DNA of 63,541 nt, the filler included, from Sluysia triapertura (Eukaryota), in assembly GCA_046118255.1 (NCBI GenBank). It is 5 parts of 5 records of this genome, joined end to end, with 100 filler letters (N's around TTAATTAATTAA, not from the genome) between each part and the next. Parts side by side here need not be neighbours in the genome. Positions count along the whole stretch, not along the records: positions 13,134 to 26,288 come from JBJNIA010055883.1; positions 26,389 to 38,580 come from JBJNIA010130404.1; positions 38,681 to 52,762 come from JBJNIA010006550.1; positions 52,863 to 63,541 come from JBJNIA010193149.1; 1 more part is not named here. One strand, given 5' to 3'. Below the pieces are notes generated by a model. That model was given only the letters and a program-made list of their open reading frames with translations. It was not told where the DNA came from and made no database searches. Position numbers and translations under genes: made by a program. Within the stretch, counting starts at the first letter, position 1, and each line of letters begins with the position of its first letter. This document shows positions 23,590 to 62,690 of this stretch, one piece after another.

Positions 23590-24950
23590 TGCAGACAAAA
23601 ATTTTTATTTAATGTATTAAATTTAAAAAATTCAATGTTTAGAAGGATTGATCTGCATATGTTGTTTTCGATCAACCACGCTTCAGTATCTGAAAAAGAA
23701 ACAAAAGTTAAGTTATCTTTGATGTAATAATAAAGAATGTTTACCCTATCATTATCAATGGAACCAACGTTGTCGAATATCCTATACTTGCGAATAAGTT
23801 TGCTAATCTAGAGAAACGCTCCGTCCGGAATGCATATTGAATCTATCATCCAGCAACTGATTGACAGTGTGCACATATGCACAATTAGATCCGAATTTTT
23901 TGCATTTGCCATCTTGGTAACTTGTGTATGGACAAAGTGCTGGTCTATTACATACATCTGTACTTGATAAATCATCGAAATAATTGCGTCGAATTGAATT
24001 AACAGCAACCGATGGGACGGACATTAAATTCTGGAATATATCGTTAAAATGTTGTCCTTTATGAGGATCAGTATATTGATATAATGAGCATATCTCCAAG
24101 CCTTTTTTACATTTATCTTTGTCATCCTTATTTAACTGAGATGAGTTAATTGGTAGAGCTTTATTTGAAATTAACTTTACGCTTGCATTTATTGTAAGTA
24201 TCTTAAAAGATTTGATCCTTTTTATATTCAATGTAAAGCGGTAACGAACATTATTTTATATGGCTTAGAGTAATCATAAACTATATTAGTAACTAGTGGT
24301 GCGAGCTTTACATTTTGATTTAGATCCATCACATCAACATGACTAATTACATCTCTTCTTATTCAAAAACTCAGCATCTTTTGAATCATCTCAGATTTCA
24401 AGTAATTATGTACGAATTGGCATCATAAATTCATAAACTGCATCTTCTTCTAAATTTTCGGTTGATCTTTTAACTTCTAAGGTCGAATGACATTGAAAGA
24501 GTATTCCTATGGAGTTGTCAGTGCTTAATCTGTCTTTGTTACTGACGTTGGTGATGAGAATTCTCAAATCACAAACTTCAAGTCTAATTATATTGAACAA
24601 ATTTTTATTGTTGTCCAGACGAGTGATCGTCTGTTCTAGATTTTGATGAATAAATACTTCTGAAACATTAATATCGGATAAAGGATTTGTAAACAAATAT
24701 CATAAATGACAATTTAATGGTCTTGTTCCAATATACTAATACATAAACGTTTCCATCGTTCATGACTATCATGTTCTTGATTATTGTTATTTGAATTTAA
24801 TAAAATTATATTTCCATTTGGTGGAATGGTAATTTCCAATTCAGTTGTGGAAGTAATTATATCCATATTTGTAGGTTTGATTGTTTGTAAACTTTGATCT
24901 ACAGTTAATTCTCGTTTTACCAAACGTTTGTCTATTATTAAATCTAGATA
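23590..24950 (-). pseudogene. CCCH zinc-finger gene family member 1 (disrupted). Finger at 23934-23869.
   Basis: Track ORFs 24714-24923, 24406-24696 and 23803-24231 are collinear, and the last two are in the same frame. Finger sequence CPYTSYQDGKCKKFGSNCAYVH. Probable 55-nt GT-AG intron 23744-23690 followed by an exon reading TEAWLIENNICRSILL. Confidence 0.7.
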
Positions 24951-26219
24951 ATCTAATGTCTTTAATAGTGTTATCGTTAATGGTGGTAGTTACAAAATTG
25001 ACAACTAATAAATTAAAAATACTGAAAAATTAAAATGATAATAATAATAACAACAATAATGTTATTATTATTAATCCAAAAATGCATGAGCTTCCTTTAT
25101 TTCTTTTATTATTTCTTAACACATTTAAATACATTTTCTTAGCTTGAAGTAGATAAATGTCTAAAGATTAAATATTAGGATACTGTAAACCTTTGATGTT
25201 ACCAATTAATGTCAAGCGTTTGCAATGAGATTTTACGGTGTAGTTGCACTTCTAATATTATAAGATAATGCGTAAGTGTTTTAAATGAATTTTTAAATTT
25301 AATTGTTTTGACTGAAGATAAGTTTGAATGTTGAAAACTTATAACTTAAGTATTTTGAAATAATATGTAAATAGTTTATGTGAATTTTTAAATATACATT
25401 GGTGTTTTAAATGAAAGTAATGTTTGGATGTTAGTAAATTGTGACTTAAAAATGCACTGAAAAGAGAGTGGTTTAGTGGATGTAAAGAAGATTTTGGTAC
25501 ATTCTAAAAAGGTGGTTGTACAATATTGAAAATATGATTTTGATTATGTTCATACTGAACTATGTATAAAAAAGTCTCTAATGAGTTTTAAAATGTGAAT
25601 TATATTTTGAAAATGAATCTGATTTTGTTATGCTTAAAATAAAAATTTTAATAAAATTTATTAAATGTAATAGGTCGGCCACCACAATTGTATTTTCAAA
25701 AAGCATAAAAATTCGCTGATCACTATATGAAATATTAAGACATTTATTGATGATGATATTCCAAAGCCAATTCTTTACTTGCTAACAGAAAAGTGCGATT
25801 AATTAACATTACAATTAATACTGAATCAATAGGCAAGAATATTTTTCAAGAAAAAAGAGATATCACATAACACCTCATCTTAAAGAATTACACTGATTGC
25901 CAATAAAAGCCAAAGTATAAATAAAAGTCACGACACTAATCTATAAAAGTTTGTGTTACAGAAATTCTGAATATCGCTTTGGAAAGAGTAAAATGTGGGG
26001 AAACAAAATGGAATATTTATTTATTATTATGCATTAATTTATACAGAATGCACAATATTAATAATTATTATGTACTTTATAAGTTATACACCCGTTATGT
26101 TTCACAAATATAAAATTACTAGAAAATTATTAAATATTAATGACAAAGTTTTCCTAATTGAGAAATATTACGAAATATTTACTTCAATCTCTTTTTAGTA
26201 GGTTTTTCACAATATATAA

Positions 26220-26221
<2 letters not shown>

Positions 26222-26288
<67 letters not shown>
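26222..26288. repeat. (ATT)n microsatellite at contig end
   Basis: Pure ATT run up to the gap. Confidence 0.95.
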
Positions 26289-26388
26289 NNNNNNNNNNNN
26301 NNNNNNNNNNNNNNNNNNNNNNNNNNNNNNNNTTAATTAATTAANNNNNNNNNNNNNNNNNNNNNNNNNNNNNNNNNNNNNNNNNNNN
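26289..26388. other. Artificial contig-join linker
   Basis: N-TTAATTAATTAA-N, 100 nt. Confidence 0.98.
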
Positions 26389-26505
26389 ATTTTTATTATT
26401 AGTATTTTTAAATGAATATTATTATGACATTTTTATTATTAGTATTTTTAAATGAATATTATTATGACATTTTTATTATTAGTATTTTTAAATGAATATT
26501 ATTAT
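26389..26505. repeat. 40-bp minisatellite, about 3 copies
   Basis: Unit ATTTTTATTATTAGTATTTTTAAATGAATATTATTATGAC starts at 26389, 26429 and 26469. Confidence 0.9.
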
Positions 26506-26879
26506 ATTATGACATTATTATTATTATTATCATTTTAATATTATTATACGTATTATATTATTAATGCATGACATCTTAAAATGTGGAAGATTGTGTTCCA
26601 TTTCGAGGTTTTTCCTAAAAATGGAAGTCTTCAAAAACTTAATACAAAATGTGAAAAAAGAATCTATAATAATAAAGAAACAAGATAAATCATTAGAGTT
26701 ATTATTATTTAATGAAAAATTAAGTTAGTTTGTTTGTGAAAGTTTAGAACATTCTCTGGTGTTTCTTGATTAACTTTATTAAGGAGCATCGTGAAATCAT
26801 ATATCTTATCTTTTATAATTTTTTCATCATCTAAAACTCCATAAATGTTTCGCTGCTCCGGTCTTCATTAACATTAGTA

Positions 26880-27760
26880 TCGTCACCGATTGTCAATGAA
26901 CTAGAATTCTCCACAGAATCCTGATCGACCAGACAATCTTTATGTTGATGTTTTCCACTATCATCAATTGCAACGCTCAGGGCTTTTGCGAAGCAGTTTC
27001 GCATTACATATTATTGAGTTATTTCATCCCAGGCCATTTTGAACAAAATATTGCATCTAATATGGTGATTCTTTTTATCACTTCATTTATTCTACCGCAA
27101 ATAAATTATTAAAATGATTTTTTAATGTTTTGATTATTCTCTGAACACTCGTTTTTTTGGAAATAAGACTAAGTCGATGTTTGAATGTTCAACAGAAAAA
27201 CATGACAAGTTATATTGTCCACTAACAGAGCTATTTTTCATTTAAATGAGGTAACCGATTTTAAAAAATTATTTATGTGAAGAATCATATTCGGTCTGTT
27301 CTACGTCTGTTCTAACTACAGCATGAAAGTATTGTGAAGTGTTCTTTTCTGATTTTATTTCTTCAACAAAACTTTTAATTAAGAGTATCTTATATAGAAA
27401 CTGTTTCATCGCAATTTAAAACATTTTCTTCCACGTATTCCTCAATTAGATTACCTTTTGATTGAAACTTTCTGATCGGAATTCGCCTCATAGAGTTTTG
27501 AATTTGATGCCAAATTGTTTTCTTAATCTGTGAAACGACAAAGTCTTTATTAGAATTCTTTTTGCGTTTTTACGTGCTATAAACTTCAAAGTTGACTCAT
27601 TCATTTGATTATGGGGATAACGAAAATTTTGGTGAACATCTATACTCAATCGTATTTCATTATCCCGTTTGATGTGGAGCAAAAATGAACTGAGGTTTCC
27701 TTCTTTTTCAATTTCAGACGGTGCAGACTTTTAGAAGTCGGGTATTTTCATAAATATATT
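26880..27760 (-). mobile_element. pogo/Tigger-type DDE transposase remnant
   Basis: FHRLRKQFGIKFKTL*GE (end of CENP-B-type HTH), EEYVEENVLNCDET (first catalytic D motif), DNITCH, and ITILDAI..MAWDEITQ..RNCFAKA (typical Tigger C-terminus). Many stops. Confidence 0.88.
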
Positions 27761-28105
27761 CATCTCTATAGAGGCCAGCTTCAATGTCCATAAATATTCT
27801 GATATTTTGATTGTAACTTAACTTTATATTTGTAAAAATTTGTAAAATAAATTGAAGAATAATATCTTTTATCAGACTGAAATTTACTTGAATAATTTAT
27901 CTCAAACAAAATAGTTTCTCTGAATGCTTTTCGAAATTATTTTAAAATTATTATTTTAAATTATTAGAACATAATTTAGAAAGTGGGAAAATTTTTATTA
28001 ATTTTTTACAATTATAAATAATCTTCCCCAAATGGAGGTTTATTCAAAAGTCTCCCGTTAAGTGATTGTAAAATTATCTCAGTGATATTTTCCACAAACG
28101 GAAAA

Positions 28106-28106
<1 letters not shown>

Positions 28107-28153
<47 letters not shown>

Positions 28154-28154
28154 C

Positions 28155-28186
<32 letters not shown>

Positions 28187-28190
28187 ATTA
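28107..28190. repeat. (ATT/ATC)n microsatellite
   Basis: Direct observation. Confidence 0.9.
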
Positions 28191-28249
28191 ATCTTATTAT
28201 TAAAACTAATTATAATCATTTTGTACATTATTATTATTATCGTTAAATA

Positions 28250-30200
28250 TAATCAGGGTTACTATTTTAATCTTAAAAAATTTTCAACAAAATCGTGTCG
28301 TACAGTATAGAGTATATTAACATTTATTAATTGCTAGTGATTAATATTCGATTATTGATTATTTGTTATTTGTTAATATTATTTATACATGTGAATCTAC
28401 ATTCTACAATATTTGCTTCATTTTACATTTGAATTTTTATTTTTGAAATATTTAATTTAAACCTGGATTTTTTTGGATTTTTAAAGTAAGAAAATGTATT
28501 TAAAAAATTTTGTAAATTAGAACATTTGAATTTTTATTTTTGGAATATATGATTTAAATCTGGATTTTCCTGGACTTTTAAAGTATGAAAATATATTAAA
28601 ACTTCTGTTGATTAAAGAATTATATTTTATTAATTAAGAAATTTTTAAAGTAAACTAACCTGATTGTAAATTAAAATAAATTTAAGTAAATAATAAATAA
28701 GTAAATTGTTTTAATAAATTAATTTTTGATATTTGTTTTAATCTGACTAAAAACAAATATAAATACACTTAAATTTTATGCTTATTTCTTGTTCAAAGAA
28801 AAAGATTGTAAATTATCACGTTAGTTTAATTATTATAAGTTAGATATTTATATAATATCATTAGCAAAATATTCTTAAATTAGTGATCTAACTTGGGATC
28901 CTGTAGAAGATCCATAGCATAATCCTTTTTAAATTTTGTATTTATTAATAAACTAAGTAGATAAAGTTAGTTTCGGTAAATTTTTATTATTAACTTTTTA
29001 GACGATTTTGTATTATTTTGGTAATAAAGTTTTTTTAAGCAATTATTTAATTTCATATAGTTTTAAAATCAAAAAATTAATTGTCACATTTGTTTTCTAT
29101 AGACTAGAATTTAATTCTAGGAAGCAAAATATATTTTATTGATTTCATATAACGGAATCTTCGAAAGATTGTGATTTATTTTTAATAGTTAAAGTTCTCA
29201 AGAAATTCCTTTAAATATTTTAGATTTAATTACATTTGACAATCTTAGTAGATATCAGCAAAATTTACCTCCAGGTAGGATTAAGCATTAAGGCTCCGTT
29301 ATTGTATTTTTGAAACTTTGTTCACCAAATCCAATGGCTGGCCCTAACTGATAAGCCCAGTACGTTGGTGAACTCACATATTTGACTCGCTTTATTCTAT
29401 CTACTTTACTTTTCTCACAGAAGGGAAGATCTATGATTATAGTTATTATTATTAATATTATTGAATTTTTTTGAATAATTTTAGCGTTAAATTGATTTTA
29501 TTTGGCTTTATTACTTTCTAAATTACTTTCCATTTTTCGGCTATTAAGTCTGAAAGAGCTACTCGATAAGATATACATATTATTTATTTCAATTTTTTCA
29601 GATATTGCTATTTTAATTTTTGTTGTTTGTTATTTTTTTGAATAGATTGTTGTGGTCGTATATTGTCATAAATTTTATTGTAAATTTCGAAATTTAGTTA
29701 TCTTTCATTTAGTTTACTCATGTTATTGGTCAAGCAGAGAATTATAATAACGACTTGTATTCGATTTTTTAATTATTATATTATTGACTTATTGTTAATA
29801 TTTTAAATTAAAAACGTAATTTTTGGGTTGAATAAATATCATTATTAAAAAAGAAAATTTGTGATAAGTTATAATTGATTTAGTGAATTTTATTTAAGTA
29901 AAGTAAATTAACATTGGATTATTAATAATTTTAAATAAAAAACGCAAAATGACACTACCAAAATTGTAATATTCTCCAAATTAAAAAGAAGTTTAAAGAA
30001 AGTAATAGTTAATCTTTATCTTTTAATAATTCGAATCTATCACACAATTTTATACTTACGGTTTTTAGTTCACGATCCCATTAATCCTTGTGAAATTAGT
30101 AACGAAATCAACTCCTTATAGTAATATTATAATAACATTTATCATAGTAATTTATTAATAATGAATGATACAAAACCGACACTTACAGTCAAACGAAAAT
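28250..30200 (-). repeat. Family X unclassified coding-like repeat, copy C
   Basis: Collinear patches of identity with 56950-59450: 28733/57287, 28817-28937/57492-57615, CTAGAATTTAATTCTAG at 29104/57797, 29327-29420/57981-58060, 29496/58267, ACCGACAC at 30175/59430. Translation DRIKRVKYVSSPTYWAYQLGPAIGF...KIPLYEINK...FLELNS. Confidence 0.8.
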
Positions 30201-31971
30201 ATATTAAATTTGACAAATATCAGATTCATAAGCTCATCAAAATGATTGATGTGATTAATTATATTTTCTATTTTTTAATAAACACAACTAATTTTAAATT
30301 AACATTTTATAGCATTATATTTCTCAGATAACTTTCAACTTAACTGTTGATGTGATTTTTTCTTCTTTTAGTAACTTCTAGCCTAGGAAAATAATTTTCA
30401 ATGCGAAATAGGTCATTAAATTAAATAAGTCATTCTTATTAAAAGCGAATAACCTACCATCATAAATAATTTAAATTTGTTAGTGAGTCCACTTTTGATA
30501 CAAGTCTTAAGTATCCAAGGACTTGTTAATAAAATTTTTATAAAAGAATTGCGTAAAAAAGAATTACTATGTAAACGTCTGTGTAAAAATTTTTATACTA
30601 ATCTCAAAGATATTTCAGAATGTTAATTGATTCTGGAGTTATTAAGAGTTTAATCCAAGGCTCGTTATTAATTGTGTGATTTTAAGTCATTCTTTATAAG
30701 TAAAGCGTGAAAAAAGTCAGTTTAAGAACCTATTTATAATGGCTACAAAATGTGACACGGTCTCTTGCCAACTATGTGTTATTTCGTAGATAGAAGTTTG
30801 TATTTGTATCGCTCTGCAAATACAAATAATACCATAAATATTTAATCTTTATTTATGATGAGACACTACAGATTAAATGTTTAGGTAGTATTAAATAAGT
30901 TTTTATAAAGTTAATAAATATTTTATTCAAAATAGTATTGCTATTATACTGTATTCATTTTAATATTTAGGCAGTTCAAATAAGAATAAATTTACAATAA
31001 ATAACAGTGTCAACGTATTTAAAGTTTTTACTTTAAAAATGTAACAGGATTTTAATTTATGATTTTCATTAGCTATTTAAAATTCTGCAAAAAATTAAAA
31101 ACTGATTTGAACTACGATAAATAAATGAAATAGAGTTAAAATTGTGAAAACTTTCAGTACAAAACTAGCGTTAATTACAATTTTATACATGATTAGATGA
31201 GAGTTTCTAATTTGAGTAATTGTTTAGTGTTGGTGCTTGAAAATTTTGAAATTAAATTAGTATAAATTGTTGATCTAGTGTTATTAACGAAAATGTAATT
31301 TTGTATGTTTTTTCTTGGAACATTTATGCGCACTAGCGCTTCTATTTATAGTCAAATTTTTGTGACTTTTAATTTCATATTCATTTTTCTACTACATAAT
31401 TTTTTAATGATCAGTTTAACAAAATCAATAACAAGGCTTCTAGGTCTTTTATAACACTTAGAATTTATTAAAATAACAATTTCTTGTGTATATACATCAA
31501 TGATCCAATTTTTCTACGATTGATAGGTTATAACATCTTTCATTCAATGTATAAATTTTGCAAAAATATCACTTTAATCAAATATTAATTTACAAAACTT
31601 ATTTTAATTAAGTTAATTAAATATGCACTTATATAATTTTATACCTTAAAACACATTTTAAGGTTTTCATAGCTGTTTTCTTATGCTATCCAAATATAGC
31701 ACATGAACGATATTGTTCTAGACTTTTTTAGATATACCTTTATGTATAATTTTTAATGCAACAATATAACTCGAATAAATTTTTACTAAATATTTTATAT
31801 ATCTTTAAAATATAAAAATTTATACAAAATCCAAGGTATTAGTACTTTAAAGGATATAATGTTTCAAAATATGCAATCACTACTGAATGTTACTGGAGAG
31901 GGAAATATTAAAAAAAAGCAGTTATTTTCTCGGGAGTGAATGATTTATTTTAAGCACTTTCATATTTTAAG

Positions 31972-32122
31972 TGTTGGAGCAAGGGCCTAAAGTACCATGT
32001 TAAATTAGGATAGTAATATTGACTAAAATAAAATAAAATTGTTAGACGGGTTTGTTAGCTCAGTGAGTAGAGCACCAAACTGCGCATCGATTCCCAGTCA
32101 GTCCATTTTGTGAAGTCTAACA
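31972..32122 (+). repeat. tRNA-derived short repeat, copy 2
   Basis: TAGCTCAGTGAGTAGAGCA (A box/D arm) and TCGATTCCC (B box). TGTT...AACA termini and an internal perfect inverted pair TGTTAGAC (32040) / GTCTAACA (32115). Confidence 0.8.
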
Positions 32123-32623: not shown

Positions 32624-32769
32624 TGTTGAGACACAGGCCTAAAGTGCCATGTAGTACAATTGACTACAGTAATCTAAAAATTGTTAGATTTGGCTGATAG
32701 CTCAGTGGGTAAAACATCGAACTGCGCAGCGAAAGGTCCCGGGTCAGTCCGTTTTATGAAGTCATAACA
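32624..32769 (+). repeat. tRNA-derived short repeat, copy 3
   Basis: TAGCTCAGTGGGTAAAACATCGAACTGCGCAGCGAAAGGTCCCGGGT with the B box deleted. Termini TGTTGAGAC...GTCATAACA. Confidence 0.8.
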
Positions 32770-36810: not shown

Positions 36811-38580
36811 TTCAGATATGGAAGTGAAACTTATTAATACAAAGTTTAATGCAAAATTCTAGAATATTCTATAATGTAAATTTATAGTTATTCTTCGAAA
36901 GCTTATTATTTAGTAATTTTTTATATCAGATGTCAAACTCCTAATAAAGTTTTATTTTTGTAGGACCAACGAAACCACATGGATTTTAGAGATCTTTTTT
37001 TAATAATTAATGGAAAATTTAATAATCTTTAATAATATTTCTGTAAATGTAAAATTTTATTTCTATAAATATTACTTCCTACTATTTCATTATATTAAAA
37101 TTAGATCAAAATAAATTCATAAAAATTAATGTGATACCCACATGATGAAATTTAGGTTATTGGATGGATATTGGACAACCGAAAGATTTCTTAACTGGAA
37201 TGTGCCTATATTTAGAAAATATGGACAAATCGAACCTCAACATGTGCTTAGATGATAAAAAAATTATTGGAAATGTTTTGATTGTAAGTGCTTTTAATAT
37301 TCATTTAAATATTTCGAATTATACTTGATATAAAGTTTCTCTAAAATATTGTTAAATTATTTTCGTATTTTAATAATTGTGTACGATAAATTGGTAAGTA
37401 ATTGAACAAAGATTAAATGTAATAGTATAGTCAAATAATTTTTGTGTGCTTTGTAGTTTTACCTCAAGTCTTAATTTCTAATGGTGTTCAACTTTAATTC
37501 TAAAAGTTTTACAATTTCTGGTAAGACCTATAAACCTTTTTTTGCAATGTAAAGTAGCTTTATGCTTTAAGGTGTAAACTTGTAACTTTCACAATAATAC
37601 GTTAATTGTTTCTAATTATCGCAAGTTTTAATCTTATGTCTCTTTATATATAACTTATTCAATACTTATTCATTGTAATTTTAATGTCTAGAATCTAGCA
37701 ATTAACCAAATGACTTTTATATAATTCGTTTACTTCAACTGATTTAATTAAAATTAATTTATTAAAATTAATTAAATTATTCAATCTCTTTTTTGAATTT
37801 AATTTAAGTTGGAGATACTCGTCTCTGTTCTTAGAGATGGGAGTGCCAGCTAGTGTTTTATAAATTATTACTTAAAACATTTAAATGTTTAACGGATATG
37901 TAACAACATCCAGTTCCTCCTAACAAATAAAAAGACTTTAATGTATTGATAAAAGTTATTATAAACAGAACAATCCCATACCATAAAAATTTTTAACCAA
38001 ATTTTTAATTATTCTAATTCAAAGAAAATAGTTTTAATTTAATATTTATTTTATGCAAGAAAATAACTCACCTTTAAATGGATCACTTTTAGAAATCGTT
38101 TATTTAACAGTCAAGATCAAAATGTCGTTTCTTTTTCAACCACAAAATTATTACCAAATCATTACGAATTATTGTTTCCAAATGTTTACAATCAACATAA
38201 TGTTAATCACAGCATTACGAATAATAAATATTCACCAAATATAACAAATTGTCCACAAAATAATTACGAAATAATAATCGCAAATTATTACAGAATCTTT
38301 TTTGTGTGAAAATTATTGTTTAAGATGCTTATATATTAGATTTTTATGAACTAAAATTAAATGCAATATAATTCCTTACTTTCGTGCAAATCGGAATATT
38401 TAACTAGAACCGACATCCACGTTATAAATTCTACCAGCGCAGCTAATTATAAACTAATCAAATTCACAGCATTTATATTGGGTTGAGGAATAATTCATGA
38501 GCGTTTTTTTCAAATTTATTTTAAACAAAAAAACTACAACGATTTAATCAATAATATACTCTCCGTTGTTGTTTACAACT

Positions 38581-45600: not shown

Positions 45601-48069
45601 ATCATTTAAATATATAAGAAAATTAGTCAATATATAATACAATATAAATTAATTAAAAGATTTATAGTAGAATTATGGAGACCTCTATAAAGCTTTAACA
45701 TTCAATTTGTATATGAATTTTGATTGATTTGATATGCAAAGCATTTATAAAAAGCAAACTAATTCTTAAAGGCAATTCCATTAATGTAAAATAAATAAAT
45801 TGGTGACGTTTTTAAGTAATTTAAATTTAAGTAATTAAACAAATTGCACAATAATTAAATTGAATGATATTTAATTGCCACTATAGTAATCGTAATATTC
45901 ACATCCCCATCAAGTGTTCATTCAATTCCACCACATTTTCTACTTATGCAGAGTGCACTAATATTTGACACTTTTATAATCTACAGAAATTTTTTTAAGA
46001 AAATTTTCTAAGCATAATTAGAGCAAATATTTCGTGCGTAATTGTGGAACAGTAAGATGAAGTGCGTACGGCTTTGTGCTATGTTGATTTTTGCACAAAA
46101 ATTGCAATGAATATATAGTTTGCATATAAAGGGTGTCCGAAAAGTAACCGAACCGCAAACTTAAATAAAAATTAGATATCAAAAGCGACAAATGTCATTT
46201 TATGTTATCTTCGCTACTATTCATTACCTTCTGCGAATGACTTTGGAAGTCTTTGGAATGACTTTTTTTGCGTGATCATATTGATTTTGTTCTGAGGTCA
46301 TTGCTTGTTTTTTTGTTCAGGGTGCGTTTCTGGACCCTCATTCTTAAGAATGCAGTGAAGAACTTTAGTTATAAACTTTTTTTATATTAATAAACTTTGT
46401 TATTAATAATTACTATTCAAGAACTAGCTACAAGTATGTTGAAGAAAGATGGGAACCAAACTTCAGAACACCTGTACCGAGTAAGTCGATAATGTTCAAT
46501 CTTGTATCCAAGTGTGAAGTAAGTGGAAGTGTGTCAAATGCTCCTAAAGAAGGTCCGAAGTTCGTTCATCTGAAAACAGGGATATAATGGCAGCTGCATT
46601 TCTTCATTCTAAAAAAATCTATCGAAAGAGCTGAACATTTCTCAAACCTCACTCCACCGTATCTTGCATGACACTGGTCTAAAACTATACAGAATTCATC
46701 TAAATGAGGACGACCCGAATAAACGATTAGAATTTTCTATGGGGAGTTCTAGAGAACGCAATTTATGCTAAAAATCCTAGGACAATTGATCAACTAAAAC
46801 AAAGTATTCAGCACGAATTGGACCAAATTTCATAGAAAACTTGCCAGAAAGTATGTTGCAGTGTTGTCAAAAAATGTTAAGGTGGACATTTTGAACATTT
46901 GTAAATCCTAAATATACCTATTAAATTTGTCGTTTTTGATATCTAATTTTTATTTAAGTTTGCGGTTCGGTTACTTTTGGGATACTCTGTGTATTTGATT
47001 TTATTAAATTTTTTATGTTTCAGGTTCACTTGTGCAAGTGGACTATTTTAATGTTAGTAATGCTTTAATAGTTTTAATACTCAGCAATATCTTAATGAGT
47101 TATCTTATTTTGATTCACTTATTAAATATCAAATAATGCCAAAGTAATAAACAGCATTTAATAATTTGTGTAAGTGCTGTGTACGTTTTTATAAAAGATG
47201 AATAATTTACAAACAAAAATAGCTTCAGGAAATATTTGTATATGTTTTTTAAAATTTAAATAAATACCTTTTTAATACATAATATTGTCAAACCATATCT
47301 TTATTATTTTAAATTTTAGAACTACCCCAAACTGAGCTTAATCGTCGGATTGAAAAATTTGTTCGCAATAAACGCTTTCCTGATTACCTTGATGTTCAAA
47401 ATTTAGTGTCTGAATTCTTTCAAGATAAAAGAATACCAATGAGGTAATTTTAAAAATATAATTAAAACTTCTCTTAAACATAAACTTTAATATTATTATC
47501 ATTTGTATTCATAAATATTTGCTATCAAGTTATTAGTGCTGAAGTGTCTGTCATGCGTAGATATAAATTTATAATACATAAAGATAGATTTTGACATCCG
47601 TCACCTTTGTAGCTACATATTCCATCTTGGCAACTTAGTATCAAAAACTGATACAATCTTAACTTGTTTTTCGCATTATTAATTCGATTGAGCATAAGTG
47701 ATACTTTTGACTTTGGTTTCTTTAACATTCGTAGGTTTTTCTAATTCGGAAAATTTTATTTTTTATAATTATTTTCAAATTTAAGAATTATGCAGAATTG
47801 TATATATTATAATTTCGTAATATTAAATTTTAATAGTGATATTTTTCATTTAGTTCCCAAAAAATTGCACAACTTTCTCAGGATATTTTTCTAGGTGTTG
47901 GGAATAAACTGAAAAAGCTGAGGATTAATCATTTTGAAAAGTATTTTGGTAACCATTTGACTGATAAAGTTAGGTCAGTGATAGTTTATTCAATTTGGTA
48001 TATTTAACATCCATGTAAAGTACTAAAATTCTTATTAAAATGTATACTACTACTAATAATAATAATAAT

Positions 48070-48115
<46 letters not shown>

Positions 48116-49990
48116 TTAATAATAATAGAATTATTGTATAATAATGTTATAATATGTTTTTGACTTCATGTGTTTAAATTTTCGTCTATAATAATCTATC
48201 TCAATTTTTATTACTTTAAAATTAATCTTTTATTTTTATTGGTTTAGTTTAATTGGTTTTATGTTTTAGTCTTTCTAAAGCGTTCATCTTTTAAATTTGT
48301 TGTAGCTTAATATTTATTTTGAAGGTTGTAGTGTTTTACTCGTTTCAGTTATAAGAGATGGAAGTGCAATTGATTTTACAAATTTAAAATTCAAACTTTC
48401 TCTCGAAAAATTTAATTACGATAAGGTTTATAAGAAACTGTTATAAGTAATAGAATAAAATATCGTGAATAAAATAATTTGATGGCCTATAATTATTTTA
48501 ATAGTTTTAGTTATTGTTTGAATATTATTTTTACGCATAATAATATTCTTTATATTGTTATTGGACTTTTAATCACTATTAACTAAACCCAACTTTTGAA
48601 ATGTTATTACCAGTCTACCTATATAGATTGCTGATATATTTTCACCAATTCACCAAATTTACCTTTACTGATTGGTCTTTATATAGTGTTTCCATTCCAA
48701 TATAAATTTGTTAAGATTTCAGTATTAATAAAATTTCAGTGCAGAGTTGAAATTTTCAATATTAGTAGTTGAGACTTAATAATTAAATTGTATTGTAATA
48801 ACATATATTATACTTAAAATATTTTTTAAAATAATTTTAATATCTCCAAATGATTATTTCCAGAATAACTGAAGATCCGATATTAAAAGACGAAACTCTT
48901 CGTAGAGCGTTATCTAAGAATTTATTTGAAGGTAAACAAAAGTTAGATAAAGTAGGTTTTAATTTTATAATATACATTATATATCAAGATATAATAATAA
49001 TAATAATCATAATAATATCAAAGAGCCAAAATAATATTGTAAACTAATAATAAAACACTAGAATAAGTATTTATGTTTTAAAAAATATTTTCAATTAAAC
49101 TTTCAAATTATATATTCAATAATAAAGTCGTTTCGTCAACTTTTTAACATCAATAAACAGTTTATTTCTGTCTAATATAATGTAATACAATAATCACTGC
49201 CGACAGTTAATCTAACGCCAATAATTCATAACAACTTAATTTATGGTAAAACACTTATAGATTTATGATTATCTTAATTTTTCATATTATCTAACACATC
49301 TGTATTTCCACAATATTAATCAATTCTGTGATCGATCAATCTGGAATATTTAAGATTTAAGTTAATGTAAAAGTTAATTTAGCGTGTTTTCATTTTGACT
49401 TTATTGAAACTGTAAGATCGGTACTTATTGTGTTTTACTTATAAACATTTAGAACAAGAAAGGTAGCAGAGAAAGAAAGAATATCACAGTTTTATTTCCA
49501 GATAACAAAAGCTTTTTGATATCTTATAAGAGGATCTGCGTCAAATAACAGTAAATGGTTAGAAAATAGAAGTTTGCAATAATTTAATTATAAAGTTTGA
49601 GGAGATTTCAGTTTTTTTACAATTTTAGGCTATATCGTTGATGGGATAATTACAATTATTGATATTCATTTTTTGTAATAAACAGTAGAAAGAAGTGAGG
49701 CCTTTAGCTAAATGTTGAAAAATTTTAAGAGTTTTGAATGGTGCGTGTTTTTTGGCTTGTATCACCTGTATTACAATTAATCAAATCTAGTATTGTTTGA
49801 TTTATGTAACTAGGACGATGAAGACAGTTTACTTCCTTTTTTAACAATCCCGATATAAATTTGCCCGTTATCTTCTTAATCTATTTAAAATAAATTTTGG
49901 TCTTTGAAATGAATGCTTTAAGGTTATTCTTACATAAACTCACGCACACGTAACAAATTATATTTAAATTTATATTTAATTCAGTGTCTG

Positions 49991-50056
<66 letters not shown>

Positions 50057-52762
50057 GCGACAATAATAATTTCATAATATTAAATAAAACTAAAATCTCT
50101 TAATAATTTCAGTAGCATCAGAATAAATGTCTTAAAATTTCTGAAATCAAGAAGAATGTTAAAATCATAATAAATAAATCAAAATTAAGTAATTTAAAAT
50201 CGCAATAAATACTTTATAGGTCAAAAATATATAACATAATTACAATGAAACAGCAAAAATACGGAAAATGACAAAATTATTGTAGAATAGTACCATACAA
50301 AAATCATCACAATCTAGAATGCACAGGTAAAAAGATTGTAATAAACATAATGAATGAATGTTACTATAAAATTGAGAAAACGATTAAGACTATAGTTTGA
50401 AAAAGATTATAATAAACCTATACACTTTACGATGCATTTAGACTCACCAACAATTACATTATTTGGAGAAAATTACTATAAAGAATATTAGGCTATTAAC
50501 AACCGCAACATTAAAATGAGAAAACGAAAATCAGATTATACGTTCTAAATCATCAACTATGGAATTTTTCGGAAATTTCCATTACGGTGAATTATTTTAA
50601 GGATTGTTGTTTATTTGATTTTATTTACATTTTTAAATAGGTGTAAATTATTGTAAATCTAAAATAATTTAGTGTAAATTTATTTAGTATATGTTTGAGT
50701 AAAAGTCCAAGCTCTGTAGATAATACATTAAGGCAAATATAATTATAAAATACAAAACACTTAACAAAGACATCAAAATGCGCTTAATTTAAGAAGTAAA
50801 TAAAAGAAAACAAAAAATAAAATGTTCCAAATATGGAGTGGAACTAATTACACTTAATTAGGAAACAGGTTAAACGGCGGCACCATAAGAACGAGAAAAT
50901 ATACGATTTTATTAAAATGGAAATGAAAAAACGAATACTTATAAACGCAAATTAGTACAGCCAAGCAAATAATTACTAAATAACTGCACACAAGACAAAA
51001 TTAAATATACAGATGATATTGGCTACATTATCACAAAAATACGTATTAAAATCATTTATGTTTTTTGTTATGAAAAACAACAATTGACAACTTTATAATT
51101 GATGTTTTATTTGAATATTTTATGTTTTGATTGCTGATATTAATCCAAAGGTAACTTTACATTAATCTATTAGTACCACTATTAAATTATTTTAAATTAA
51201 ATTTTAATTATTTTGCTCGATCCATTTTTAACTATATTTGTATTTGTATTTCTATTATAAAATATATCTTTGTGTGTTAAGCGTTTATTCATTTCCCAGT
51301 ATAATGTGTTATGTTTTTGAATTATTTTAATTAAAGAATTTACATTTCCATCTCTACCAACTTAGAACTAATATTCACGTCATACGAACCAATTTGATTA
51401 ACCGAATTCTTAAAAAAATAAAAATGACCCATCGCACCTTAAAGTTAAAAGTTCATAACATTTGCGATAATTAGAATAAGTAATATATCAAATCTGGAAA
51501 GGTTGACTACTAAAGTGATACTTAACAGAAGCAAGAAATAAAAATATTTCTTTATCACATTACATTAATAATCGTTTTACCACCAACGCCTCATAGTACT
51601 TGCGGTTCAAAAAGTTTTCATTTGGCATTCAAAGTAATAATAGTAAAAGAAACAATGATTCAAATAGTGATAACGATGAAGAAGTTGTTGCAGATGATTT
51701 ACACAGTCTAAACTGTGGCTTGGTGAATCCAATGAGAATTCCAGTATACTGGATGCTTTTGGAATAAATAGTGCATAAAAGCATACCGAATACGACTTTT
51801 GTAAAAATATTTGATGTTATTGTCAATAAGATGAATAAATATATGAATTTTGTGCAGAATATGAACCTATGCCCAAAACGGAAATCATGGGTAGTCATTA
51901 ATGCAGTTTTTGCAATTATTTTGGTGATTCCTCATATAAGAAACACAATTTCTTAAATCTAGTCAACAGATTCAATTATTGTCATTGATTTTCTCGAAAT
52001 ACATGAGGAGAGGTATATTCAATTTATCGACAATGCTCTAAAAACGATAATAGTGATAAATTGTTGAAAATATGGTTAATTTTTAATGATTTATATGAAA
52101 AGTTTGCAAAATTTTTCATTGCAAAATCGACGAATCGTTTTTACTATTCAAAGGAAGACTGAACTTCAAACAATGTATTCCATCAAAATTTTTGTACTGT
52201 GCAATGGTCTTGAAGATGCTGATAGACAAAGGCTCTGAAATTGGCATTCTGCAAAGTGAAGCGTTAGGTCATCCGTCGCAATAAAAAACTTGTGGGCATC
52301 TTCTATAAACTGATAAATGGTACACTAGACCTAAATTGGCAGTTCACTTGAACCAGCAGAATATGGGTTTATGTGGTACAAATAAAAAATAGAACGTGCG
52401 AACCCAAATTGATTTCACTTTCCTCTTGATTACTTTTAAACCTCCCTATTCAAATTTAACCCAGTAGTACAGTAAATGTAATGATTACAAAAAACAAAAT
52501 AATACTAATAAATACTTTAATGTTATGATTGGAGTGGTGATTACAGGCTCCATGTCTGAATTTTCATTCCGAAATATATTAAATTTTTTATTTTTCATTA
52601 AGGTATTTAAAGAATATTTCTTGATACAAACAAATTTAGAAAAAGAACAAATTATAGATAGTGAACCGGAAGAAGATATTGCTACCGATACTGATATAGA
52701 GGAATTAGATAATATTGAAGAAGAGGATAATGATGACGATGATGTTCATGATGATGGTAATA
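42602..52762 (+). CDS. DAXX: DAXX-like histone H3.3 chaperone. Exons 42602-42628, 42662-43091, 43127-43509, 43543-43735, 47320-47443, 47854-47973, 48864-48951, 52603 to beyond 52762 (3' end lost in gap).
   Basis: All seven introns are GT-AG and phase-consistent. The spliced protein contains the DAXX histone-binding domain: RIEKLEKLL..EELTLDDLDDECSSY..LK..ELNRRIEKFV..FPDYLDV..SQDIFLGVGNKLKKLR..YFGNHLTD..DPILKDETLRRALSKN..KLDKVFKEY..Q, followed by the acidic tract. Confidence 0.93.
43760..44560 (-). mobile_element. Possible hAT (Charlie/ZBED5-like) transposase remnant in DAXX intron 4
   Basis: Weak motifs only: DCGKQ, FVIQLKKQTNI (compare FxLQLDESTD) and CLVDGT. Heavily degraded. Confidence 0.3.
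46129..46989 (+). mobile_element. Internally deleted Tc1/mariner element with TIRs of about 62 bp, in DAXX intron 4
   Basis: The TIR core AAAAGTAACCGAACCGCAAACTTAAATAAAAATTAGATATCAAAA-CGACAAAT is present at both ends in inverted orientation, with TA at the left. Transposase relics include PSKSIMFNLVSK..SGSV, LNEDDPNKRLEF and WGVLENAIYAKNPRTIDQLK...GGHFEHL. The catalytic core is deleted. Confidence 0.93.
48053..48126. repeat. (AAT)n microsatellite
   Basis: Direct observation. Confidence 0.9.
49991..50055. repeat. (ATT)n microsatellite
   Basis: Direct observation. Confidence 0.95.
51640..52400 (+). mobile_element. piggyBac transposase remnant in DAXX intron 7
   Basis: KIDESFLLFKGRLNFKQCIPSK (first catalytic D motif, about 52124-52190), GHLL*TDKWYT (DNWYT motif), acidic N-terminus and FDVIVNKMNKY. 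Confidence 0.88.
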
Positions 52763-52862
52763 NNNNNNNNNNNNNNNNNNNNNNNNNNNNNNNNNNNNNN
52801 NNNNNNTTAATTAATTAANNNNNNNNNNNNNNNNNNNNNNNNNNNNNNNNNNNNNNNNNNNN
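52763..52862. other. Artificial contig-join linker
   Basis: N-TTAATTAATTAA-N, 100 nt. Confidence 0.98.

Positions 52863-53178: not shown

Positions 53179-53231
<53 letters not shown>
53179..53231. repeat. (ATT)n microsatellite
   Basis: Direct observation. Confidence 0.95.
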
Positions 53232-55599: not shown

Positions 55600-56470
55600 T
55601 CTTTTGAATTGAGTTTGTCAGTTAATGACTTTAGTGACAAACTCGATTTTAGTCACGTTACGTAACAACTGAGATGACGGGATAATCGCATCATCGTCTG
55701 TCATTTCATCATATATATTAATGGAATTACCGTTACTGACGATAACGTTTTGAACATCACACTTAATATCTATTCGACATTGATTACTTAATGATTTACA
55801 TAATTGTCCAACATATACAATATTATTTTTATAAATGAAGAATTCCTGTGCAGTAATCTAGACTTTAAATTGATTTCATTTTGTTCTAAAAATTTCTGCA
55901 TGAGCAAAAACATGACATTTAAAAGCTTGTTTATTATTTCATCAATAATATCCTGACCAAAATTAAGATTAATCATAAGGAATCGTAATGCAGTCTGTTT
56001 TATATGAATACCACGCTCAATATCTAAAATAAAATCTTTTTGAACTTGATTGCGAGTCTCCATCAAGCAACTCCATAAAATAGGCAATAATTTTAGTCAA
56101 TATTCTGAATCAAAATTATGGTAGCGAAATTTTGTATACAATGAACAAAATTTAGTGGTATGTTTGAAAACGAGTTACCACTGTAGAGGTCTATAAAATA
56201 TTCTAATTTAACGTTACTCATGAATGATAATGACTGTAGTCGATTATAAATGAAACGTATCAATTCAATTAACTTTTGACGCAAATCAGACTTTTTAGTG
56301 ATATCTATCAAAATTGGTTTAATCATGTTGCATAAATTATTTTGACTTGATCTAATTAATTTATAGTCGTGCATTTTAGTCTCTTTTTAATTTTTAAGTG
56401 CCATAAAATTTTTGTAATTGCGTTTTTTTATTTTTAGCTTTTGTTACAATTTATTTTCTAATCATGAACA
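55600..56470 (-). pseudogene. Orphan disrupted gene (track ORFs 56093-56374 and 55788-56087 plus a downstream segment)
   Basis: Three consecutive protein-like segments on one strand, separated by single stops or frameshifts. No recognised domain. Confidence 0.45.
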
Positions 56471-56949
56471 GCAATTACATCGAGATACAAAAATAGTATT
56501 GGTTGGCCGTCCAATCAATATTAAAGAATATATGCTAATTGATTAATTTGTTGTGTGAATAGCTGCATTACGCAACATCAGACTAACTGTCATCAGTCGA
56601 CAGTTCATAAGGTATGTTGAAATGTTTTAAATTAAACTGTCGACTGGTGACAGACTGTGATTAGAAATAGTAATTGTTTGATACAAATAACAATTATGTA
56701 ATGAAAATCGTAATGATAATTAAATTAATTTTAATAATAATAATAATTGCAATAAATTAATAATAAATGCTAATAGATAATGATCATAATAATACAATTA
56801 TACAAAAATACAAAAACTCTTTAAAATCTTTCTTTCTTTACATAAAAATCTTTAATAAGTATGTAAACTACATCGTATAAACTACATCGTAAATTCGAAC
56901 TTTACTCGAACTTTATTGATTTATATTTGTGAATATAATTTATTGACAT

Positions 56950-59450
56950 TTATTAATTTAACGTTATTCAGATTTTATTGATTTATGGTTGTATATAATT
57001 TGTACTAAACAAAAGGTATTTTATTATTTTAATTCTTGGAAATAATATTTTAGAACTAACTAATTTATATTTATCTTTTGGAAATAATATTTTATTTAAA
57101 GGTATTTTATTTTATTTTAATCATTCTGAAAAATTTATTAATTATTCTAAAAAATTTATTGAATTTTAATTTGTAATTTATTAAATCTTATTAAAATCTC
57201 AAATTATTGAATTTTAATTCCATTTGTAATTTATTAATTTTTAAAATCTCAAATTAAAGTTAATATTTGTTTTAATATTTTGATATTTGCTTTAGTCTGA
57301 CCAAGGTCGGACCAAAACAAGTATTTAAATGAGCACTTTTTGAGGATAGACACAACAAAATTTTTTTTTAAATTTTTGAAGACCTTTTGGACAAGACACA
57401 CAAAGATTTTTGTACAAAATTGTGAAACAGACCTTTTAGATCAAGTCAGAATATAAAAAAAATTCTACGAAAATTTTTATTAATCACAAGTGACCTTAGT
57501 TTGATAATTTGTAAGATTGATATAAATTTTATATCTTAGTAAAATATACTTAAAATTTATTGTATTAAAAATTTGGATCTTATAAAGATCCGTGGTAAAA
57601 TCTTTTATAAATTTCAATTAAGCACAACTAAATAACAATAGTTAGTTAAAGTAATTCATATTATTATCATCAACATTATTTGTATAATTTTTATATTTTT
57701 TGTACTAAATAATAAAAGAATTTTTCGTGTTGCAATTTTTTAACTTACATATTTATAAAATCCATTAAAATCCTACTATTTGTAGCTTTCAAGAATCTAG
57801 AATTTAATTCTAGAAAGTAAATTTCCATTTATTGATTCCATATAAGGGAATCATAAGTAAAATACATAACTAAACTTAAAATTTAATAACTTGAATTAAA
57901 ATCCTTAGTAAAAAGTATCTACCTTCAGACTAAGAGGCATTATATAAAATATATTTTTTTCTTTCACATTTATCTTATAAAAATCCAACGGCTGGCCCTA
58001 GCAGGTTGGTGGACTCACATGTTTAACTTCTTTTATTCTATTTGCTTCACTTTGCTCACACTAATATGATAATATGAATTTATATTAATATGAATTTACT
58101 AACGTCATAAACAATAAATTAATTAATTTTATTACAAATATTAATAATGGTAACTAATTTTATAATAATAATAATAATAATAATATTAATATTAATATTA
58201 ATAATAGACACAAATAATAATAAATTTTATAATAATAATACTAATTCTAAAATTAGATTTTTATGTATTTATTTGGCATTATAAGGTCACAAATTTCACT
58301 TTATATAAATAAATTATTATTTCAATAGTGTCACATTGTTATTTAATTTCGATTTATACGATTTTTGATATCTTCGATTTGGTTTAACATTATTTAAAGA
58401 TTACATTGGTTATTGTTTCGGACTTTCTTAATAGTAAACGTTAGTTTACGTTGTATTACTTTAAGAGTGAAATTAAATTGCACTGAAATTTCTGTTATAA
58501 TTTTTGGAATCTTTTAATATGATGTCATTAACTATGTTAAATTATCAGTAATTGATTACATATTAATCATTTTAAATTATGCATTTTATAATTTGTATTT
58601 CGTATTTTGCAATTTGTATTAATCAACTATTGTGTTTTCGTTGTTCTATATTGAGAAAGTACAAAGACTTGCAAGTACATTTTGAATTTTATAAAGTCCC
58701 TTTAAATACAAATTGATAAACCCACAATCATAGACCATTTTGAATCATCTCAAACATGCTCAAATCATCGAATCATCAAAAACATTCGAGTAAAATTCTA
58801 AGTAAAGTTTATTAAATTTATATTTACTGTTGTTTTAAATGCGGTCGTAAATTTTACGATTATAGTTATCACCGTTATTGTTCGTAACTTACATAGATTT
58901 AAATAAAATAAATCTTCTACCCACGAACAACCGATTTTATACCGGTAGTAATGCTGCATCTTTGTTTAAAATTGCTAACAATAATTTAATAATTAAATGA
59001 ACTCAAAATTTTCAATGTATCTTCAGTAATCGTAAAATTGTTACTAATTATTGATTATTCTTTAACCGCAGTAAACATTTAATGTTCGCAAAATAAGTGC
59101 AAATTCTAATTATAGATATAAATCCAATTAACAAGTACAATACTGTTACGCCTTAAGTCAATAACAATAATCCAATATTAATTTAGTTCAATTAGATGAA
59201 ACATCAAATGATTTCAATATTCACTAAACCAAGTACAACTTATTACCAATTTTCTTATCATCAATTTATTCAACCCAAAAATTATTTAATATTTTCAAAT
59301 TAAAAACAACTCAATATTATATTAATTACAAAAAAATCAAATATAAGAATAACTATAAATTAACTATAAATGATTAAATCGCAAAAACAATAATAGTTCT
59401 GTTTATTCGCGATATTAAACATTTACAAATACCGACACCTAAAAAGTTAA
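56950..59450 (-). repeat. Family X unclassified coding-like repeat, copy F (longest)
   Basis: Collinear with copy C over about 2 kb. Contains VSPPT-LGPAVGF, EGRYFLLR and MIPLYGINK..FLELNS. A stop-riddled frame lies upstream at about 58980-58330. Confidence 0.8.
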
Positions 59451-60150
59451 AGACAATAATAATTATTATATATTTTTGAACAGCCTTAGCAGAAAAATTA
59501 CAAAATAATCCGGACAGGGAGTCTCCCAAAAATAAAATTATTTAATTACTTAACGAAAATAAAATTTTTAATTTGAAATACTTAAAAGAATTCTGGCAGG
59601 GAGCCTCCCCAAATATTCAGATAACTAAAAAAAATAATTTCAGTGGTAAAAATTAGCTAAATATTTCCCCAAAAAGTTATTTACTTAATAAAATCTTATT
59701 AATGATTAAAATAATAAAATAATAAAAAAACATTAACATAAGTCATGGATTTTCTTTTTTCATCATCACTGTACGCTATGATCGATTGTGTTTTTATTAT
59801 TTAAGTATTAGCTTCTATATCTCTGTATCGTCCAATCACTTTAAAACTCACAATTAGGAATTACTATTGCACAAATCATCAAAACCTTGTGGTGGTATAT
59901 AGTTTATTTCAGTAATGAATATGACTATTTGTATTTTAAATTCTTGTATTTTAAATTCTATTAATTTAACTTTGAAGAAAAATATAGAAAATACTTGAAA
60001 AATATTGTTAAATTTATATTTATTTAAGAATTTTACTAAAGATTTAAATTATCTCTTTTAAAATTTATTGATAAACAAAAGTAAGAGCTAAAATGTAATT
60101 GCACCAAATTTATATTTATTAATTGTTTCATTATTTTCCGATTATGCCAC

Positions 60151-61169
60151 TCAGGATATAAAAATAAAAAGATATAAAAAATAAAAATGATGTAAATTAT
60201 TAAAATTCATGTAAAAATATACAAGTATTACCATTTCAATGTTTGCGACATTCTGCAAGTAACTTTCGACTCCCAAAGTTGATAAGATGAATTGTGTTCT
60301 AAAATAATGATTCTCGAAACAAGCCAAATAATCAGGGACATCACGGAATTCTAAAATTGTGTGGCCCTTAACACAGTTTTTGCCGTATTTGTAACATTTA
60401 CCGGTCGGAGTGGACATGTAGGGACAGAGAGCAACTTGTAGAATTTTGTTACTATTTACAACGACTTGAATTGGTCAACTTTTGAACCATCATTTGACAA
60501 TGTTGTCTCTAATGATTTCACTTTGTTAGTCGTGACTAATGAATATATGTCTACTATATTTGCAATAGATAATTTATGAAATGTTAAAATTATATCGATA
60601 GCAATATCTATAATTTTATTTTCTTTAGTCATTTTATACTTCAAGGCACAAACATGAATTGAACTAAATCGTTTAAACTTAGGTGCATAATACACTGTCA
60701 TCAAATTTCTTGTACTAATGTTTTGTACATTTCGGTTATATATTAATCCAGAAGTATTAACATTACAAAGCATTAATTTATTAATAGATAATGATTTTAA
60801 TTTGCTTTCTCAACATTAACGATGTCTTATATTCAATGGTGACATTAAATAACGGACAAGATTATAATCAATACAATTCATATGAGTACTCATTAAATTA
60901 TGTTATAATTATGTTTTATAATGTTCATCACTGATATCAAATTTCGGTTGCATCAAATTCGTTATATCCTTTAACAAAACAGGATAACAATATCTTTTAA
61001 TAAATATTTCGTTCCAAATTTCGTTGAATTCATCTTTCAAAATTTTCTCAATCGCACAATTATTACTAAATGAATGTTAAATATGTATTTTATCAAACAG
61101 ATAAATTTTTTTAGATAAACCAAGTTTCTGAATTTCGGGTTTAGTTGATTTAATAATTTGTTGAAACAT
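60151..61169 (-). pseudogene. CCCH zinc-finger gene family member 2 (disrupted). Finger at 60426-60361.
   Basis: ATG at 61169 is in frame with track ORF 60456-60773, with about 5 stops between. A one-base frame change near 60474 leads to PIQVVVNSNKILQVALCPYMSTPTGKCYKYGKNCVKGH (track ORF 60151-60417). Confidence 0.7.
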
Positions 61170-61775
61170 AATTCGTTATTCGTAAAATTAATACCACTAA
61201 TAATTAAAATGTAATTAATGAAATAAAATCGCGATTAAAATGTTCATACTCAATAATTGTTTTTGTACGTTTGTGAAATGATTATTGCTTATGATTGGGT
61301 GTACATACTTTACTGGTAGAAATTGAGAAAGAAATAAAATAAAATTCTTTTAACTTATTTCTTTTAAATCCGATTTATTCGGTGATTAGAGACTGAATTT
61401 TAAAAGATTGTAAGCTTGAAATGTTTCAGATTGATTTTAAGATGTGTGTTCAATGCTTTAAGGTGTAATTGTTATTTTAATATTATTAGATAATGCGTTA
61501 AATGTTTTAGCTGAGTTTTAAATGTGGATTGTTGGTTTTAAATGTAATTATGATTTGATCGTTAACAGATTGTGAATTTAAAATGTTTTGGGATATGTAA
61601 AATGATTTTAATGGATCTGAAAGAAGTAAATAAAAAATGTTTTAATATAAACAATGCAAAATGTTATGGAATGTAGTTTTATGTGTAATGTGTTGAATTA
61701 ATTTTTAAATTTATGTTTGACAATTTTCGATGTCGAATATGATTTTGATGTTATGAAACTTTATGTTTAGAGTGT

Positions 61776-62690
61776 TTGAAAGTATTAAGAATTGTTAAAT
61801 GTTTTGAGAGTTATTTTGTTCGTGATGATCAACATAAAGCTAAAGATGATAATTATAACGATTATATAATATGCAACAACGAAGATAAATCTAATTTGAT
61901 CTACAATGTTAAAGATAACAATATTCCAGGTATGATTATTAGAGATAATCAGAATAAAGCCGATGAAGATGATTATGACGATTACCAAATATGTTATAAT
62001 ATTACTGTCGAATTTATGCAAATAAGGAGAATAGAATATATTGATGGTAAAGTCAACAACGATGTTTTCCTTAGCTATCTTAAAGATAAATTTCACGAAT
62101 TTGAACGGTACAAAGTTAATATTCTTAGTCTTCATAAAATTAATGTGTCTTCAAATCTTATTATAATTTAAATTTAATTAATTTTTTTAACGATAAAATT
62201 AATATTGATGATATTAATAAAGTTAAACGTAAGATTTACGAAAAGAATAATGTGGTCAAGGAATAATTTTTAAATGTCTCTCGACACAGAAGTAATGGTC
62301 AGGACTATTAGAAGAAATTTTAAGTATACATCTGTCATGTGTCCAGCTCTTACTGATAATAATGGTATCTGTTTAACACGTGGATTACCCTGCCGATACT
62401 TTCATTCTATTCAGGAGTTTAAGTTCAGTGGCCAAAATAGATCATCTTACTACTTGAACTTACAACGAATTTCAGAGTTCTTGTATACGATTACAGTAAC
62501 TTCCAGAATTTCGGACAGCTGCAATGCAAGTGACGTTTATCTATATTCTTTATGTGCTAACAATTATTATTACTGTTATTTTTTATTTATAGGTGGAACG
62601 CAAACACGAAATGTCATACATGAAAGTGAAGTACAAAAATTAAATCTTTTAAAAAATAAATTTTCATGTTATTATTTTGAATTTTTTTAA
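61776..62690 (+). pseudogene. CCCH zinc-finger gene family member 3 (disrupted or spliced). Finger at 62340-62405.
   Basis: Track ORFs 61776-62171 and 62274-62690 are in the same frame. Finger sequence CPALTDNNGICLTRGLPCRYFH. KINVSSNLI, INIDDINKVKR and VRTIRRN align with TINASVKLI, LNKDDKDKCKK and VNSIRRN of member 1. Confidence 0.7.

Follow-up and report, generated by a model that had tools for sequence, protein, structure and literature searches.

The question raised by this stretch of Sluysia triapertura DNA is why it contains the same kind of CCCH zinc finger at three sites: they may belong to a working gene family of the host, or they may have been carried there by a repeat. The stretch is 63,541 nucleotides long, joined from five records of assembly GCA_046118255.1, and we call it the window; the three sites are called A, B and C. 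The presence of the three motifs is far beyond chance and, to judge from the fingers and the position of an intron, the sites are broken paralogs. We give about an even chance to the explanation that they derive from a single cassette, one finger with its intron, which was multiplied as DNA together with its 5' module, probably as the passenger of a non-autonomous repeat. Such an architecture, a single-finger cassette with a shared module, is a new variation; the type of finger is known.

The three fingers and their type

Three motifs of 22 residues are found exactly where the first-pass annotation had placed them, and all of them fit CP-x6-G-x-C-x3-G-x2-C-x3-H:

23869–23934, minus strand: CCCH finger of copy A, C-x9-C-x6-C-x3-H, Unkempt-type (PF25427, E 1.9e-4, 21.7 bits)
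60361–60426, minus strand: CCCH finger of copy B (PF25427, E 0.0057)
62340–62405, plus strand: CCCH finger of copy C (PF25427, E 0.0067)

In 150 third-order Markov simulations the bare pattern C-x9-C-x6-C-x3-H appears 0.013 times per window, with a maximum of one; the strict consensus, a pattern derived after the fact, has no occurrence. There is a fourth bare match in the window (18846–18781, minus strand), in which the P and the first of the glycines are missing; it faces an open frame of 113 amino acids on the other strand and is missed by a profile of the three copies, and we consider it due to chance. The fingers share 12, 8 and 7 of their 22 residues in pairwise comparison, and 36, 32 and 28 of their 66 bases. 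Copy B has a Lys in place of the aromatic residue found before the His in A and C.

The spacing had been called atypical. It is indeed rarer than the x7-8/x5 type, which makes up 79% of mouse CCCH motifs as given in PMC2478707, but it is not novel: all three fingers satisfy the general superfamily motif quoted in the same source, C-x4-15-C-x4-6-C-x3-H, and their spacing is that of a solved finger of Unkempt. The Pfam family PF25427 (zf-CCCH_UNK) is the best one for the three frames, with 21.7, 17.0 and 16.8 bits, which do not reach its cut-off of 31.1. The profile of the three copies aligns with residues 92–132 of mouse Unkempt (5elh_A, PDB 5ELH) with no gap, at E 0.052 among 177,635 sequences; the remaining CCCH chains among the matches listed align with gaps. 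The third finger matched in 5elh_A, C-IHETDSKGN-C-TKNGLH-C-AFA-H, has the x9/x6/x3 spacing and both glycines as in our three copies. From the order of the matches and the construct, this finger is probably ZnF3. The RSIRR of Unkempt, ahead of its preceding finger, also pairs weakly with NSIRR in the profile. By its spacing the finger type is thus a known one and not new.

The three loci are not themselves unkempt genes, because six-frame pattern and profile scans find one finger in each of them and not six, while those of Unkempt are grouped in two clusters of three (PMC12136788). With Unkempt (UNK/UNKL) they have in common the gap-free C-x9-C-x6-C-x3-H, the G before the second Cys, the G in the x6 loop and the top Pfam family. 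They differ from it by their single finger, by scores of 16.8–21.7 bits below the cut-off, by being multi-copy and broken, and by the rest of the protein, which is unmatched. As described in PMC12136788, ZnF1-3 of Unkempt prefer A/U-rich RNA, with about 2.4 uM, and are weaker binders than ZnF4-6. Two AlphaFold2 models of our sequences had a predicted local distance difference test score (pLDDT) of 38 and 39. The literature searched contains no description of the repeated finger gene, nor the literal C-X9-C-X6-C-X3-H together with CCCH, an absence of little weight since the notation of such strings varies.

Broken exons, a predicted intron and the 5' module

Each finger lies near the end of a broken exon, followed by a predicted intron. 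The parts of the three copies are:

23745–25004, minus strand: long broken exon of copy A, which begins at a putative acceptor (AG at 25005), includes the finger and extends to the donor; its limits are inferred from the sequence
23690–23744, minus strand: predicted GT-AG intron of copy A, 55 nt, beginning 124 nt past the His codon
60232–61196, minus strand: long broken exon of copy B, putative acceptor AG at 61197, with five stops in frame and, near 60470, a frameshift
60150–60231, minus strand: predicted intron of copy B, 82 nt, beginning 129 nt past the His codon, with a weak acceptor
61820–62529, plus strand: broken exon of copy C, with an internal duplication in its N-terminal part; no 5' module of its own was found
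62530–62592, plus strand: predicted intron of copy C, 63 nt, 124 nt past the His codon; a second GT is found at 129 nt, and there is a branch-like TGCTAAC
25101–25620, minus strand: 5' module of copy A, homologous to 61345–61820, with G>>C on the plus strand and a 95-bp internal duplication
61345–61820, minus strand: 5' module that separates the divergent copies B and C; relative to B it has the orientation which A's module has relative to A; about 20-bp periodic, G 20%, C 4%

The frames are broken as had been noted: the five stops of B fall in 237 codons, the frame of A shifts at least three times and contains several stops, and that of C is likewise interrupted by shifts and stops. The intron-like stretch which had been described after the finger is sharper than claimed, with a GT at 124, 129 and 124 nt past the His codon in A, B and C and an AG 55, 82 and 63 nt further on. 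Its G+C content is 14–22%, against 27–31% in the exons. The criteria that describe it, chosen once the three cases were known, fit 778 of 126,622 window positions (0.6%). We take the GT-AG stretch as one conserved, predicted intron.

Paralogy of the three copies, as claimed earlier, is borne out by the finger and the place of the intron, and for A and B also by the common 5' module. The proposed similarity upstream of the finger is another matter. With X at the breaks, the frames before the finger have about 344 (A), 246 (B) and 194 (C) codons. The words quoted by the first-pass annotation are present in the sequence, but local alignments of these frames are not significant (A-B p 0.59, A-C p 0.23, B-C p 0.20), so that the N-terminal similarity is much weaker than it had appeared and a shared domain is not confirmed. 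The pair EICSL/DIYSL is placed 24 residues before VxVNS for one placement of the B frameshift only, and the best alignment leaves the two words unpaired. When the alignments are anchored on the finger, p is 0.003 for A-C, 0.09 for B-C and 0.74 for A-B over the last 100 residues; over the 41–43 residues past the finger it is 0.017 for A-C, 0.16 for B-C and 0.005 for A-B, all six p values being uncorrected. The stretch that can be aligned between A and C corresponds to the last 90 residues or so before the finger; the remainder is unaligned. At the DNA level, neither the gene bodies nor the 3' flanks of A, B and C have a significant likeness to each other. The N-terminal frame of C has a 120-bp duplication (61820–61990, plus strand, RDDQHKA.../RDNQNKA...) which is kept in frame (z 9).

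Searches with the rest of the protein gave no relative. The N-terminal pieces have no match in Pfam, NCBIfam, the PDB sequences, an atlas (B) and 1.84 billion representatives (A). In the last of these, copy A read through with X gave 0 matches at E 0.001. The last frame of A and the three-row profile had no match among 5.8 billion clustered proteins, where only the longer proteins were covered; five single queries against the PDB sequences and the search of NCBIfam had none either. Metagenome and viral contigs gave 112 and 49 pattern matches, 0 of them confirmed. The atlas was queried with A and B: the last frame of A falls on generic zf-CCCH clusters at values of at most 0.87 and on clusters of nucleocytoplasmic large DNA viruses at 0.86 and 0.81, which we discounted, and the N-terminal frame of B has no match.

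Several candidates for the N-terminal parts were set aside. A RING at the start of C, suggested by the RING-(RRM)-CCCH order of proteins such as CNOT4 or Roquin, would correspond to a Cys-rich stretch (61653–61800) which has no Pfam match at E 10 and is part of the TG-skewed periodic module. Pfam and sequence searches do not support an RRM before the C finger, where the succession of strands and helices looks by eye like one. Sequence searches likewise give no support to a stretch of A (24699–24409) which by eye resembles VPS13. Two outcomes had been named beforehand as fatal to the earlier claim, the lack of an alignable N-terminal domain and a fit to a described family, and what we find is half of that: the three copies have no N-terminal domain that can be aligned throughout and the finger fits a described type, while the whole gene fits none.

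The 5' module is the only DNA common to the copies. In A and B it has about 500 bp, and in both it is followed, after a comparable distance, by much the same kind of site, resembling a splice acceptor; the two modules are 78% identical over 77 nt by blastn (E 7e-9), and a separate comparison gives z 11.9. These are its only two sites in the window. The period of about 20 bp in the B module is at the edge of significance. Copy C lies on the opposite side of the module and points away from B, so that the two genes are head-to-head; a mirror module for C was not found in the comparison of the window. Twin palindromes were sought in both modules and not found.

Copies in a public sequencing run and their possible origin

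We compared contigs of one public sequencing run with positions 58300–63541, which contain B, the module and C, at 80% likeness. There are 6,530 contigs which fit this region, 483 of them at 99% or more. The summed contig depth, which is not a copy number and to which alleles also contribute, is 26–41 over the flank 58300–58824, 316–696 over B, 524–1,934 over C and 2,331–10,052 over the module, where coverage of the B/C unit is highest. Other letters at the listed sites are found in 4–29 contigs in B and C and in 41–102 in the module. These values suggest that related copies within 80% likeness number in the tens, and those of the module more. Depth is high again in the unrelated repeats on the left side of B and on the right side of C; the segments 59000–59349 and 59700–60049 are very heavily covered.

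The same contigs bear on the decay of the genes. A single contig of 408 nt, with one other letter and no gap, covers all five stops of B, so these stops are present in the DNA. One of the five is a sense codon in 19 contigs (depth 440 of 458) and is therefore private to B. Among the best 40 of 1,303 rows, ranked by support, we find 23 differences from the B/C region, of which 20 lie within the assumed frames. Five of these 20 are synonymous, where 19–23% would be expected with no selection (p 0.79); one of the 20, taken alone, reads as a new stop, which marks the limit of reading single sites. The private changes of B and C look neutral, and the copies in the window are most likely dead and drifting. 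The fast evolution which had been proposed, if read as evolution under selection, is not supported by these changes. The view that the breaks are errors of sequencing or assembly in genes that are intact can draw on the assembly gaps of the window, and on the fact that a near-identical spanning contig is shown for B only and not for A or C. The 408-nt contig and an alpha-tubulin frame of 579 codons, open in the same window, speak against it, and we regard it as very improbable. The reality of the stops, which had been left to a check against reads, is thereby confirmed for B.

What is upheld of the first-pass annotation is a paralogous, lineage-restricted, multi-copy and broken set of genes, probably derived from an RNA-binding finger. 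It had hesitated between a host family and genes encoded by an element; of the two we lean to element cargo. A non-autonomous repeat which carries a gene is suggested because the leader is common to copies with no likeness in their coding DNA and is commoner than the genes. The founder of the cassette would have acquired, from a gene like unkempt, a single finger of the type that binds A/U. Its 5' module may have served as promoter or leader and as the handle for spreading, and the cassette would have been copied as DNA and not as spliced RNA, because the intron past the finger is kept. Copy C probably came to lie head-to-head beside B by insertion or rearrangement, and has either lost its module or shares that of B. 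A living copy is predicted to encode a protein of 250–400 residues, with Zn2+ in a C3H site, which would bind A/U-rich single-stranded RNA weakly, as may be expected of one finger out of a cluster of three.

A working host family would be different: single-finger RNA-binding proteins with birth-and-death turnover, active in the germline or in RNA defence, with the module as a conserved promoter and N-terminal halves diverged beyond recognition. The Cys/His ligands, the glycines and the place of the intron are conserved despite a deep divergence of the DNA (28–36 of 66 bases identical in the fingers), which implies past selection on these lineages, as in a host family. This is a point against the passenger explanation, to which others have to be added. 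Neither an inverted arm beyond B (p 0.91, 0.25), nor a 3' sequence shared among A, B and C, nor flanking direct repeats around the copies, including those of the long terminal repeat (LTR) type, were found, and the Pfam scans of the window gave no transposase tied to the cassette. The hairpin-CTRR end of a Helitron has 7 weak sites in the window, 0 of them within 3 kb downstream of a copy, though decay could hide one. The match to Unkempt is weak by its E-value, and 6nzl, a chain with generic tandem fingers, outscores it overall (E 0.005), though with gaps. For the sequencing run no library is recorded, and a relation to the source of the assembly is possible; and the differences counted above are the best 40 of 1,303 rows, each site read alone. 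To the host family we would also credit the alignment of the last 90 residues or so of A and C, the sense codon in other copies at one stop of B and the absence of element ends among those sought. Still, all three copies of the window are broken and their private changes look neutral, the depth of the module is several times that of the genes, no relative is found in the 1.84 billion representatives or among the longer members of the 5.8 billion clustered proteins, and neither an intact copy nor a transcript came to light. On balance we consider a working host family unlikely, yet a serious alternative.

The N-terminal 100–250 residues of A, B and C, which cannot be aligned while module, finger and intron are shared, would suit an element that captures genes. 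Its 5' module and its finger exon would be constant, and the piece of host gene lodged between the two would differ from copy to copy, so that the products are chimeric finger-fusion genes. None of the N-terminal pieces matched a host gene in the searches given above (Pfam, NCBIfam, the PDB sequences, the atlas for B, the representatives for A), and we hold such capture to be unlikely. Equally unlikely is its widest form, an exon-shuffling element with a mobile promoter module and an Unkempt-derived finger exon, which would have produced hundreds of finger-fusion genes, a few of them alive and able to bring borrowed domains to A/U-rich RNA; the head-to-head pair B/C would then correspond to a module which works in both directions. 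Should a repeat indeed shuffle host exons onto a finger, chimeric RNA-binding genes would be arising in an animal in a new way.

The passenger explanation has analogues. An element with terminal inverted repeats (TIR) and cargo, of the Pack-MULE or foldback type, has inverted arms on both sides of its cargo. Such arms are not found here: the inverted left arm considered for B was rejected, its comparison not being significant, and a Helitron 3' end for the cassette was also rejected, with no hairpin-CTRR next to the genes. DNA transposons may amplify promoter-bearing gene pieces to thousands of copies, as described for Helitron promoter-exon pieces in bats (PMC4224331). The Helibat promoter/exon protogenes, as presented there, resemble our copies in being copied as DNA with their introns kept, in a promoter-like 5' part that is commoner than the gene part and in their mostly neutral state; our cassette differs by having no hairpin-CTRR end near the genes, no Rep/helicase tied to the unit and no identified captured host gene. 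The chimeric retrocopies mediated by LTRs, in the account of PMC5131818, have in common with the window a long intron-free exon behind a repeated leader and a possible fusion of unlike pieces. They differ in two features: all three copies here keep a predicted intron past the finger, and no LTR-like direct repeats flank them. What distinguishes the present case is that an Unkempt-type finger, which normally works in a group of three, stands alone and has been amplified many times behind a shared repeat; to this the window adds the head-to-head arrangement and the conserved intron, in copies which are most likely all dead and with no cargo named.

Neighbouring repeats and the host

The B/C unit is adjoined by a piece of a different repeat:

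62790–63019, plus strand: end piece of a TIR repeat, a copy of the right end of 46124–46994; it is separate from the cassette and adjoins it

In the public run 87 loose contig ends are found at position 63019. The region 46124–46994 is itself an element of 870 bp, bounded by terminal inverted repeats of 75 nt (89%), in which the helix-turn-helix DUF4817 is weakly matched (E 0.004); it is presumably a deleted element of the Tc1/mariner type. Repeat blocks are also common to 28818–29891 and 57493–59347, two of them direct (68–72%) and one inverted (77%). Frames at 18621–18959 and 52099–52281 (plus strand) look by eye like pieces of the piggyBac transposase, and short frames at 2847–3323 (minus strand) like a remnant of a Gypsy integrase; none of them has a Pfam match. 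Three related short repeats (22554–22710, 31966–32122 and 32652–32769) have tRNA-like boxes by eye and are possibly a short interspersed element (SINE), with 0 matches in ARAGORN and 0 in Rfam.

The window has 24% G+C and short assembly gaps, and contains spliced eukaryotic genes which are read under the standard code. Two exons in 47840–49044 (plus strand) match the histone-binding domain of DAXX (PF20920, E 2e-6 and 9e-5). Together with the range of DAXX, these matches point to an animal as the host. An exon at 37149–37325 (plus strand) resembles by eye a mannose-1-phosphate guanylyltransferase, with no Pfam match at E 0.01.

The alpha-tubulin (4940–7578, plus strand) has an open frame of 579 codons under the standard code, which rules out a non-standard one. 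It is highly divergent, with at most 56% identity to anything found and a C-terminal extension of about 190 residues. In a quick tree of 37 rows chosen from 120 matches it forms a long branch together with four unnamed Logan proteins, the best three of which are 52–56% identical to it. Three of these four relatives end, as the tubulin itself does, with a motif similar to SL(M/I)xxLxRxT.

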